Part shown: piece by piece, positions 41,301-44,300 of the stretch
Layout: each line of letters opens with the position of its first letter
Numbering within the stretch: position 1 is the stretch's first letter
Source: Escherichia coli
GTDB taxonomy: Bacteria; Pseudomonadota; Gammaproteobacteria; Enterobacterales; Enterobacteriaceae
DNA length: 64,000 bases
NCBI RefSeq assembly: GCF_030013205.1
Contig: NZ_CP122648.1
Reading direction: 5' to 3' (one strand)
Program-made: the position numbers

Positions 41301-44300
41301 GTTTACCGAGCGTCCATCAGCAAAATTCTGATTATATTGGTAATCGCTACGTAAGCGCCATGCGCCGAGGTTAAAGCCTAACGTACCATAGGAGCTGACG
41401 TTTTGGGTGCTGTCTCCGTGATGTGGGGCATACTGGCTGGCATACATGTTGTAATCAAGAATAAACCCGGCGATACCAGCATCCCAAAACTCTGGTGGCG
41501 TCCAGTTTGTTGCCTGGTATTTTAACCATGCCTGGGGAACACTTAGCGATAATATCATCGTAGCTTTATCAAGTCGTGTAGTTAACTCCTGACGTTGGCT
41601 TAAATCGAGACATTCGCTGCCAGCTATGTTTTGCAATGATTCAATAAATTCCGTATTAAGACCGAAATTAGTCAAATTTTCTTTGGTTAAGCAGAGTAAC
41701 GAACCACTTTCATTATCGGCTTTTACCCATTCCAGTATTAACGTTTGTGGCAACATATTTTTATTTATTTGCACACGAACGAGGTATCTACCAGGGGGGA
41801 TATAGCCTTTTTTCTCAAAACGCGAGATATCAATATTCTCACGGTCTTCTGCGTCAACCATATCGACGTTGAATTCTACGGCGTGGACTGGCAAAACGAA
41901 GAGTAGGGAACACACAACGCCAGACAGGGCAATTTTAATTGCATGGGATAACTTATCCCCGGTAAACGTGTTTTTATTGTTCATAAAAATCCATTTCTAA
42001 AAAGGCCCAAAGTTGCCGATGAAATTTCATCGGCTTTACCGCCTGACGTTGTGTAGTTACTAATTGCCGCTTACTTGTAGTCGAGTACGTAATTAGCTTG
42101 TGCCTGCACGTTACCTGGAGTCGCGGTGCGTCCCAGAGATTCCATACGGGCTTTAAAGTTCAACTCCTGGTAGGAGTTAGTCGTCGGGAAGTTGATAGTG
42201 ATTGGAGTGCCAAGAGTCACGTTGGTGTTGTCTGATTTCACCAGACGTACGCCTACATCAGTTGCGCCGCCGATGTTACCTTCCAGAGTGTTTTTAAGCA
42301 GGTTGGAATCGGTAGCGTCAACACTGGCAGAACTAAAGGTGATTTTGACTTTATCAACAGTGTTCGTGCCGTCAGATAAAATACAATCCTGCAAGTGAAT
42401 GGTGACATCTACAGGCAGAGATTTCTGACCGCTTTTTAATACGGTATCAGCAACTTCACCGAGGTTTATTGTCTGATCTTCATCACCAGGAGCAATAGAA
42501 CAAGGTGCATCGATAACTTCACCTTTAAAAGTAATTTTACCGGAACCCTGATTAGCATCGTCAGCAAGAGCGTTAAAAGCAACGCCTGATAACAATGCGG
42601 TTGCGAACATAGATAACAATGTTTTTTTAAACATGACTATAATCCTTTATAAATTAGAAAGGTTATTAATGAGGAAAATATAGGTTTGAATCTGATATTA
42701 ATTCCGCTATGGAGATTACCATAGTTAGAGATGACTTAGCTTGTTATTAATATTAAATACTGATTAAGTAAAACTTAAATCATACATTTTCATTATATAT
42801 TAAGATGCGTATACCTGGATATTTGTTGTATATCGTTGTGAATAATAATTTTTTTGTATGAGTTGTGGTGAAAAAATGAACATTCATTGACAAAAGTTTA
42901 CGTATGATATTGTAAGGTGGTAAAGTATATTTATTAAAACGAGTAGGGACGCAAGAATCGTGAAGATATAATATATATCTAGAGGTGCTTATTAAGTTTT
43001 ATTATTAATTAGTAATGTTTTATCGGGGGATAATATATATTAATAGTCTTGGTTGTTCTTTTTTTAACCAGATATGGTATATAATACAACACTTACTATG
43101 ATCGAAATCATATACTTGATCCAGAATTATGCGAGTATATGAATGTATTCAACGATGGATATGTGAAATTTTAACGCTAAATGTTTAGTAATGTTAAATT
43201 TTGAAGGTGAAAAGGATGTTTATTGCCTGGTACTGGATTGTATTAATTGTTCTACTGGCTGGTGGCTATTTTCTTCATCTTAAACGTTACTGTAAAGCTT
43301 TTCGCCATGACAGAGATGCGCTGTTAGCTGCCCGAAGTAAATTAGATAAACGCTCCGATAAAGAAGTGTTTGAAAAGCATCAATAATACCTTTAATAACG
43401 ATACAGATGTTGCCTTTAGCAATGGGCAACATCTGTCATTATCGTCTTTAACCAATTCCCGCCGTTTGTAGCAGCACTAAACTGAATCCCATCACTGACA
43501 TTCCACATAGTACGCCATAGCTGGGGTTATTATTAGGGTCAATCTCTTTGGCGAGCGGCATTAATTCATCAACCGAGAGCGCCACCATAATTCCTGCAAC
43601 CGCCGCCATGATTGCCGCCATGACCACCGGGGAAATCATGCTACCGAGGATTAACCACGCCAGCACACCACCAAGAATTTCTGCCAGTCCAGAAATCCCC
43701 GCCCAAAGAATCGCGGTGCGTTTAGACCCCGTTGCCGCGTAAACCGGCCCTGCAACCGCCAGACCTTCAGGAATATTGTGTAACGCCACGGCCAGTGCGA
43801 TGCCAAAGCCCAGCTCCAGGTTGCTGCTCGCAGTGACAAAGGTGGCAATCCCTTCCGGGAAGTTATGCAGACTGATGCCGAGAGTGAGCAGAATGGCTGT
43901 GCGCTTGATCGATTTTGGCAACGGCTGCACCGATTTTTGCATTAAATCCTGCGGATGCGCATGTGGCAACATGCGGTCCAGGCCAAAATAGCCAAGCAGA
44001 CCGAAGATAAACATTCCATAACCCAACACAGGCGACATTCCTTCGGCGGCTAGTGCGGCAGGAAGCATTTCCATTAATGAGATGAGCAACATGATCCCCG
44101 CCGCAAATCCTAGCGAAAACGCCAGTAAGCGGTTCGAGGGTTTTTGCCCTAGAACGCCGAGAAACGCGCCAATAAATGTGGCTGCCCCCGCCAGTATGGT
44201 CAGAATGAGAGGTACTGACATCGACAACTCCTTATAAATCTTCACCTTCAGGCAGATCGTCAAAATAACTGATGATCATCATCATTGTTATCCGGGTTCT

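Follow-up and report, generated by a model that had tools for sequence, protein, structure and literature searches.

The locus described here raises the question of whether a short open reading frame (ORF) beside a fimbrial operon of Escherichia coli is a gene, and, if so, to which of its neighbours it belongs. The stretch analysed (the window: 64,000 nt of E. coli contig NZ_CP122648.1, assembly GCF_030013205.1, with all coordinates given as window positions) carries on its + strand an ORF which, read from the sequence, runs from a TTG at 43201 (61 amino acids) or an ATG at 43216 (56 amino acids) to a TAA stop codon at 43384-43386, in an 813 bp spacer of 30% GC between a fimbrial major-subunit gene and zupT. 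The original prediction, made from the sequence alone, had described a 56-61 amino acid ORF with a good internal ribosome-binding site and a single hydrophobic helix in an AT-rich spacer, and had suggested that it could be an unannotated small membrane protein or a fimbrial-regulatory leader peptide. The ORF, its ribosome-binding site, its helix and its AT-rich setting were all borne out by our analysis, but the ORF proved to be annotated already, and the fimbrial role did not survive. It is almost certainly the ortholog of K-12 yqiD, a known gene and not an overlooked one, which has already been named, experimentally detected and annotated; it belongs with ribB and zupT and not with the fimbrial operon, with which it was co-imported and to which it has no other functional tie. 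Taken as a whole, the evidence makes it very probable that yqiD is a monocistronic gene for a 56 amino acid bitopic inner-membrane protein, with its own FNR-type promoter block, present here as a divergent allele resembling that of E. fergusonii.

Identification of the ORF as yqiD

A megablast search with positions 42900-43500 against 5,426 complete E. coli genomes found the locus in 5,424 of them. The window sequence type (at least 90% identity) is present in approximately 999 genomes, where the coding sequence (CDS) is labelled 'hypothetical protein', and the remaining 4,425 genomes gave a 77% nucleotide match to a CDS labelled 'yqiD: protein YqiD'. The record of strain K_EC180, which is 100% identical, annotates exactly 43216-43386 as WP_001296421.1. 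By BLASTP the window protein is 66-68% identical to K-12 YqiD (E = 3e-26), and a phmmer search of 5.8 billion proteins returned K-12-type and Citrobacter YqiD/DUF4051 proteins at E values of 1e-15 to 1e-17. The K-12 gene (b4756, YP_009518818.1) occupies the equivalent slot, after ribB and convergent with zupT, and shares with the window gene its length of 56 amino acids, start, Shine-Dalgarno sequence, upstream block and downstream hairpin, differing in that ribB lies upstream in K-12 where the window strain has the yqi/EA-I fimbrial cluster (EA-I, or EA/I, being the adhesin I of extraintestinal pathogenic E. coli, ExPEC).

The K-12 protein has carried the name YqiD since 2018, when a chromosomally encoded version with a sequential peptide affinity (SPA) tag was detected by immunoblot, and a ribosome-profiling screen with tetracycline likewise gave a positive result (VanOrsdel et al. 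2018, Proteomics 18:1700064, PMC6001520), so translation of this frame, for which the original prediction had looked to ribosome profiling, has been observed for the K-12 ortholog. Protein synthesis has thus been shown for the K-12 allele, and we infer it for the window allele from the conserved Shine-Dalgarno sequence, the conserved ATG and purifying selection. UniRef names some members of the family 'DUF4051 domain-containing protein', and it is from these names alone that the DUF4051 label derives. The name 'YqiD' as found in the literature mostly denotes the yqiD (ispA) gene of B. subtilis or is a misspelling of YqjD.

Of the two possible start codons the ATG is the real one, because the stretch from TTG to ATG is not conserved in frame (there is a 1-nt indel in K-12), while all orthologs keep the ATG and begin with MFIAWYW or a near variant of it. 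The RefSeq annotation likewise uses the 171-nt ATG form, and the ribosome-binding site, which had been called internal, is internal to the TTG-extended frame. An ATG-initiated ORF of at least 56 amino acids was obtained in 17% of shuffles of the spacer, so the length of the ORF is not in itself significant, and we count it as a gene because of the comparative evidence.

Conservation and selection

A scan for orthologs using one genome per GTDB species yielded 30 loci, from E. coli, E. whittamii, E. albertii, unnamed Escherichia species, many Citrobacter, Salmonella enterica subsp. arizonae and diarizonae, Intestinirhabdus, one Enterobacter species, Kosakonia and Phytobacter. The original prediction would have been undone by a frame disrupted in close relatives, and no sampled relative had a broken frame: each of the 30 loci has an ORF of 56-70 amino acids with a conserved ATG and an upstream purine-rich sequence resembling a Shine-Dalgarno site. 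This sequence is AAGGG or AAGGT, at the position of the window Shine-Dalgarno sequence, in all of the Escherichia, Citrobacter, Salmonella and Intestinirhabdus orthologs, and is replaced by a GAGGAAGG-type site in Enterobacter sp. kpr-6, Kosakonia and Phytobacter. In all 30 loci yqiD is convergent with zupT and ygiD lies beyond, and in most of them ribB is upstream.

For codons 1-40 the ratio of non-synonymous to synonymous substitution rates (dN/dS) was 0.03-0.06 at dS values of 1.3-2.4, among those pairs from Escherichia, Citrobacter, Salmonella and Intestinirhabdus for which dS could be estimated, rising to 0.13-0.23 against the more distant Enterobacter sp. kpr-6, and the tail from codon 41 onwards gave approximately 0.5-0.9 from few estimable pairs. 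Variation across the 30 sequences is concentrated at the third codon position, with column entropies of 11.5, 7.9 and 39.2 bits for positions 1, 2 and 3 respectively. Judged from these alignments, the yqiD frame is under strong purifying selection. Within E. coli, an identical WP_001296421.1 is encoded by three strains whose AT-rich spacers differ, and one of these three shows, within 43098-43447, a single synonymous change in the CDS compared to five changes in the 118-bp upstream block.

When 1.84 billion representatives were searched exhaustively with a profile, only 22 family members turned up, from few genera, and the YqiD/DUF4051 family is thus small and enterobacterial. A distant member of 57 amino acids occupies the same slot, X in ubiK-ribB-X-zupT-ygiD. 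Eleven columns are invariant in an alignment of 21 sequences (M1, I3, W5, R24, C26, A28, R30, D32, R33, D34 and A35); the window protein has all of them, and the family motif [KR]R-x-C-[KR]-A-[FY]-R-[QH]-D-R-D-A-L is present in it as KRYCKAFRHDRDAL. Members more distant still retain [KR]R..[KR]A[FYC]R[QH][DE]R[DEA]A. Rare frameshifted variants were also seen (P0011, P0060 and P0061, together with the K-12-type P0036, P0037 and P0046), which may be either real or sequencing errors; the dominant clusters are intact.

Predicted topology and conserved core of YqiD

YqiD can be divided into a transmembrane (TM) helix at approximately residues 2-21, a basic conserved juxtamembrane motif at residues 23-40 and a variable charged tail at residues 41-56. 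The mean Kyte-Doolittle hydropathy of residues 2-20 (FIAWYWIVLIVLLAGGYFL) is 2.16, and the AlphaFold2 model has a single helix spanning residues 2-55, with confidence limited to its membrane part (predicted local distance difference test scores of 86-89 at residues 1-20), in keeping with the small single-helix membrane protein that had been proposed. The helix starts at residue 2 with no charge before it and is followed by six lysine or arginine residues within the next 18, so by the positive-inside rule YqiD is predicted, with good confidence, to be a bitopic inner-membrane protein having its N-terminus outside and its C-terminus in the cytoplasm. Searches of PDB sequences, using the family profile and K-12 YqiD as queries, found no matching chain.

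In the pattern of conservation, the aromatic outer half of the helix (MFIAWYW) and a hydrophilic motif R-x-C-x-A-[FY]-R-x-D-R-D-A beside the membrane are invariant, and the tail runs free. On the basis of this pattern we put forward, as a tentative proposal somewhat short of favoured, that YqiD is a putative small subunit or modulator docking on a larger inner-membrane protein. Among the small single-pass modulators known from the inner membrane of E. coli are AcrZ (acting with AcrB), MgtS (with MgtA and PitA), CydX and CydH/YnhF in cytochrome bd-I, and KdpF. YqiD shares with these a size of 30-60 amino acids, one TM helix and a short conserved cytoplasmic segment; it has no sequence similarity to them, and the comparison is a working analogy and not one of family membership. 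The core of the family, TM residues 1-11 together with RxCxA[FY]RxDRDA, defines the residues to mutate.

An FNR-type upstream block

Class II FNR promoters carry the sequence TTGAT-N4-ATCAA centred at -41.5, and the core of the FNR box reads TGAT-N4-ATCA. Conservation upstream of yqiD starts abruptly at a perfect palindrome, ATGATCGAAATCAT, a single copy of which lies 115-118 nt ahead of the ATG in 35 of the 41 loci fetched (these 35 being from Escherichia, Citrobacter, Salmonella and Intestinirhabdus). Written as ATGAT-CGAA-ATCAT it matches the FNR consensus at 8 of 10 positions, with a perfect core. The core sequence occurs seven times in the window compared to 1.3 expected; two overlapping matches (TGATGATCATCATCA) lie at 44270-44284, in the divergent zupT-ygiD promoter region. 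Comparison across genera showed that the palindrome is followed, after a conserved spacer of 24 nt, by a [TC]ATA[TG] element at 43136-43141.

In K-12 an FNR peak from chromatin immunoprecipitation (ChIP) lies at 3181647 (U00096.2), described as 5' of zupT/ribB, on which the three ChIP-seq peak callers and ChIP-chip agree (Myers 2013 Table S5, PMC3688515). A sigma-70 ChIP-seq peak at 3181649 rises from 395 under aerobic to 1002 under anaerobic conditions (2.5-fold, p = 7e-83; Table S2 of the same paper), and a predicted FNR site, TTGATCATAATGAA, is given at 3181683 (Table S6). The target of the FNR peak is given as 'Unknown' (Table S9), because yqiD was unannotated until 2018. The same data set lists FNR ChIP peaks at ynhF, blr and yncL, which, like yqiD, are genes for small proteins. 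We moved these coordinates onto the MG1655 record with an offset of +1978 bp (U00096.2 to U00096.3), whereupon both peak centres map to ATATGAAT, equivalent to window 43137-43144 and approximately 75 bp upstream of the yqiD ATG, and the converted Table S6 site overlaps the palindrome, which is itself approximately 36 bp from the centre of the FNR peak.

From the ChIP peaks and the conserved palindrome upstream of yqiD, we lean slightly towards the view that in K-12 this gene has its own FNR-bound, and probably FNR-activated, promoter for oxygen-limited conditions; for the window allele it is the conservation of the palindrome that suggests a link to FNR. The K-12 promoter resembles those of class II in its TGAT-N4-ATCA core, the lack of a usable -35, FNR occupancy in vivo and a higher sigma-70 signal under anaerobic conditions, and differs from them in its outer A bases, in the distance to the candidate -10, which is 2-4 bp longer, and in having a start site that is putative. 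No paper linking the Myers 2013 FNR and sigma-70 peaks to yqiD was found in the literature searched, and as far as that search shows the link is new. It gives the published ChIP peak a candidate target gene, and suggests a condition under which a phenotype for yqiD may be sought.

Beyond the -10 candidate lies a 6-bp inverted repeat (43145-43162) whose pairing is kept as ATATCC/GGATAT in most Escherichia (the K-12 type), as ATATTC/GAATAT in the E. fergusonii type and as ATACCT/AGGTAT in the C. amalonaticus/sedlakii group. The window version, GTATTC/GGATAT, pairs only with G-U wobbles, and the repeat is degraded in the C. freundii complex and Salmonella. It could be an operator or a 5'-terminal RNA stem. 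Folding of the leader RNA gave no stable structure (z = -0.72 for the single sequence; alignment consensus of -0.5 kcal/mol with no covariation), and an Rfam scan of 42600-43500 gave no match.

Exchange of the yqiD allele with the fimbrial cluster

The window and K-12 alleles share 77% of their nucleotides. The two proteins are identical at residues 1-11 and 17-26 and agree at 35 of their first 40 positions, and the sequences of their last 16 residues are unrelated; dS between the two alleles is approximately 2, which is saturated and puts them as far apart as E. coli and Citrobacter. Identity to K-12 is 44-62% over the 3' half of yqiD and the downstream hairpin and then rises to 97-100% at the zupT stop codon (approximately 43445), the ZupT protein being 100% identical to that of K-12. 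At the left edge, the window sequence departs from that of K-12 at the ribB stop codon (TAA, against TGA in K-12), after which comes a different terminator. The divergent segment (37604-43447, approximately 5.8 kb) contains a four-gene chaperone-usher cluster at 37660-42634, a length of 4,975 bp, inserted between ribB and yqiD, with the zupT side unchanged. The ExPEC adhesin I (yqi) cluster of avian pathogenic and uropathogenic E. coli is also 4,975 bp long and is missing from K-12 (Antao 2009, PMC2771359). K-12 has a ygiL-yqiGHI cluster on the other side of ubiK-ribB, with a major subunit only 60% identical.

The nearest relative of the window yqiD is the E. fergusonii type, with 80% amino acid identity. 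Nucleotide identity to it is 93-100% across the promoter and the initial 30 nt of coding sequence, and over codons 1-40 there are 13 mismatches at third positions and four at others. A natural recombinant, P0017, joins a window-type N-terminus to a K-12-type tail. The yqi/EA-I 'island' is thus a segment replacement of approximately 5.8 kb, bounded by the stop codons of ribB and zupT, which swapped the yqiD allele along with the fimbrial genes, and as far as the searched literature shows this allele replacement is new. It matters wherever the expression of yqiD or of the fimbriae is compared between K-12 and ExPEC strains.

A model for yqiD

In the model that we favour overall, yqiD would be transcribed from a promoter block of its own, starting at the FNR-type palindrome (43098-43111) and continuing with a weak -10-like element, into a leader of perhaps 65-70 nt, as estimated from the ChIP peak centres, followed by the Shine-Dalgarno sequence, the ATG at 43216 and the stop codon ending at 43386, and after this by a strong hairpin that yqiD would have in common with the convergent zupT. 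FNR would activate transcription when oxygen is limiting. YqiD would bind a larger inner-membrane protein through the MFIAWYW half of its TM helix and the cytoplasmic R-x-C-x-A-[FY]-R-x-D-R-D-A motif, with the variable acidic or basic tail being dispensable. A more speculative combination of these elements, which we regard as possible but on balance unlikely to hold in full, is that yqiD is the missing target of the orphan FNR/sigma-70 peak reported in 2013 between the 3' ends of zupT and ribB, that YqiD is induced by oxygen limitation and docks on an anaerobically relevant machine, for which ZupT would be the obvious candidate, and that ExPEC strains swapped in an E. fergusonii-like allele with the EA/I cluster, an exchange that kept residues 1-40 and the FNR box and replaced the tail.

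Several observations weigh against parts of this model. Both half-sites of the palindrome read ATGAT and not TTGAT, having A and not T as their outer bases. A generic sigma-70 scan called no + strand promoter upstream of the ORF and found no good -10 there, as can happen with a promoter that depends on an activator. The centre of the palindrome lies at about -43 to -46 from the best -10 candidates, 2-4 bp beyond the canonical -41.5. The ChIP occupancy data are from K-12 and not from the window allele, and TTGATCATAATGAA is offset by 6 bp from the palindrome and is not conserved in the window. The coordinate offset of +1978 bp is our own assumption, with a sole cross-check, which is that the Table S6 14-mer then coincides exactly with its own sequence. 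YqiD was detected in aerobic cultures in lysogeny broth (VanOrsdel 2018, PMC6001520), so its expression is not confined to anaerobic conditions. In the protein, Cys26 and His21 are invariant only in close genera, the distant members P0066, P0069 and P0071 being without them. Lastly, Pfam-A and NCBIfam scans gave no significant hit for YqiD, with sub-threshold matches to MerE, DUF2621, DUF4381 and NF038143 that fit a generic TM similarity; the absence of a match to a DUF4051 model probably reflects a missing or retired model and not a biological difference.

Alternative explanations

The alternative that survives best is a specific version of the partner-binding proposal, in which YqiD would be an accessory or regulatory subunit of the divalent-metal importer ZupT and its juxtamembrane histidine and cysteine might sense metal. 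The two genes are convergent in all of at least 30 loci, including those of distant genera, but synteny includes ribB and ygiD equally and may be plain conservation of gene order, and convergent neighbours are not co-transcribed. His21 and Cys26 would lie at the cytoplasmic face of the membrane, with an additional Cys20 in Citrobacter and Cys21 in place of His21 in Kosakonia, and FNR also activates anaerobic Fe2+ uptake; against this, the cysteine and histidine are missing from distant family members, which weakens the idea of metal binding, and ZupT is far more widespread than the 22 YqiD representatives with their few genera. One metagenomic ORF, P0070, joins ZupT residues 1-70 in frame to a C-terminus resembling the TM and motif region of YqiD (125 amino acids, at 1499-1876 of L037, a Logan contig from SRR31245077). 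This fusion comes from a single contig of 2 kb and would require an inversion, and it is probably an assembly artefact. We therefore consider it improbable that ZupT is the partner, and return to the broader proposal of a larger inner-membrane protein.

It is very improbable that yqiD encodes a type I toxin-like hydrophobic peptide opposed by an antisense RNA, in the manner of the ibs/sib loci, which lie nearby in K-12. The ORF is small, hydrophobic and intergenic, and antisense promoter-like hexamers are present at 43296-43268 and 43197-43168, but such matches number five compared to 6.3 expected in shuffles, and K-12 does not keep the antisense -35 at 43296. Moreover yqiD is single-copy, strictly syntenic across genera and under strong purifying selection, K-12 YqiD accumulates from the chromosome in normal growth, and a conserved hydrophilic helix makes up over half of the protein, which is not so in Ibs, Ldr and TisB.

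Less credible still is the suggestion of a leader peptide, or of a regulator dedicated to the neighbouring yqi (EA/I) fimbrial operon. It has in its favour the position of the ORF in the AT-rich spacer beside the fimbrial promoter region and the fact that the window allele accompanies the fimbrial cluster in E. coli. The ORF (+ strand) and the operon (- strand) are, however, divergent, and because of this opposite orientation and the distance of 581 bp to the fimbrial start codon the ORF lies outside the fimbrial mRNA. In most of the 30 species the gene has no fimbrial genes beside it: in K-12 and the E. fergusonii type ribB with its terminator is directly upstream, and most Citrobacter and Salmonella likewise have ribB and not fimbriae there. 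The gene, its promoter block and its own terminator are kept in these loci, and in E. whittamii and E. albertii a related fimbrial gene lies upstream of a K-12-type yqiD. Nor did folding of the leader reveal an attenuator-like structure. Strand, distance and synteny thus lead us to reject a fimbrial role in favour of a gene that stands with ribB and zupT. That the ORF arose by chance in AT-rich non-coding DNA, as the shuffled spacers would allow, has next to no probability and is already refuted by its conservation, selection and synteny and by detection of the K-12 protein.

Downstream hairpin and neighbouring regions

The perfect 12-bp hairpin between yqiD and zupT has a folding energy of -25.6 kcal/mol (z = -7.6 for the + strand, -5.7 for the - strand). 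In K-12 and in the E. fergusonii type this place is taken by another sequence, which also forms a strong hairpin (z of approximately -4.4 and -4.3 respectively), and the locus of C. braakii, the only Citrobacter folded, was not better than its shuffles (z = -1.1). A terminator scan did not call the hairpin, and its U-tracts are weak; it is probably a shared bidirectional terminator. The coordinates of this and the other features are collected in Table 1.

Table 1. Features of the yqiD locus and its immediate neighbours, in window positions.
Feature	Position	Strand	Remarks
Fimbrial major-subunit gene	42071-42634	-	Neighbour of the spacer containing the ORF
Perfect palindrome ATGATCGAAATCAT	43098..43111	.	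Core TGAT-N4-ATCA; 5' edge of the conserved yqiD upstream block; 118 nt before ATG
Candidate -10 region (TATATG / TATGAA)	43136..43143	+	24-26 nt 3' of the palindrome; spacing and core conserved across genera
6-bp inverted repeat GTATTC-N6-GGATAT	43145..43162	+	At or just after the presumed start site
A/T-rich leader block, inverted repeat AAATTTTAAC / GTTAAATTTT	43166..43202	+	Conserved
Shine-Dalgarno sequence AAGGTG	43204-43209	+	6 nt 5' of ATG, inside the TTG-extended frame; read directly
yqiD CDS, 56 amino acids, MFIAWYWIVLIVLLAGGYFLHLKRYCKAFRHDRDALLAARSKLDKRSDKEVFEKHQ	43216..43386	+	RefSeq CDS WP_001296421.1; similarity to K-12 YqiD
Perfect 12-bp hairpin (ACAGATGTTGCC / GGCAACATCTGT)	43403..43436	.	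Between convergent yqiD and zupT
zupT	43448-44221	-	Convergent neighbour; its stop codon is the right edge of the K-12-divergent segment

Two observations concern the surrounding DNA. An assT-dsbL-dsbI (aryl-sulfotransferase) island lies between ygiD and ygiC in some E. coli and E. fergusonii-type loci (at approximately 9200-12500 in L040 and L041, and at 7985-11151 in L033); it is present neither in the window, where ygiD (44337-45152) is followed by ygiC (45189-46349), nor in K-12. On the fimbrial side, the AT-rich spacer at 42635-43097 (27-33% GC) is far more variable between E. coli strains than the adjacent yqiD block, megablast coverage in one subgroup beginning only at 42963, with 93% identity, and this could represent variation in the promoter or phase control of the fimbrial operon.

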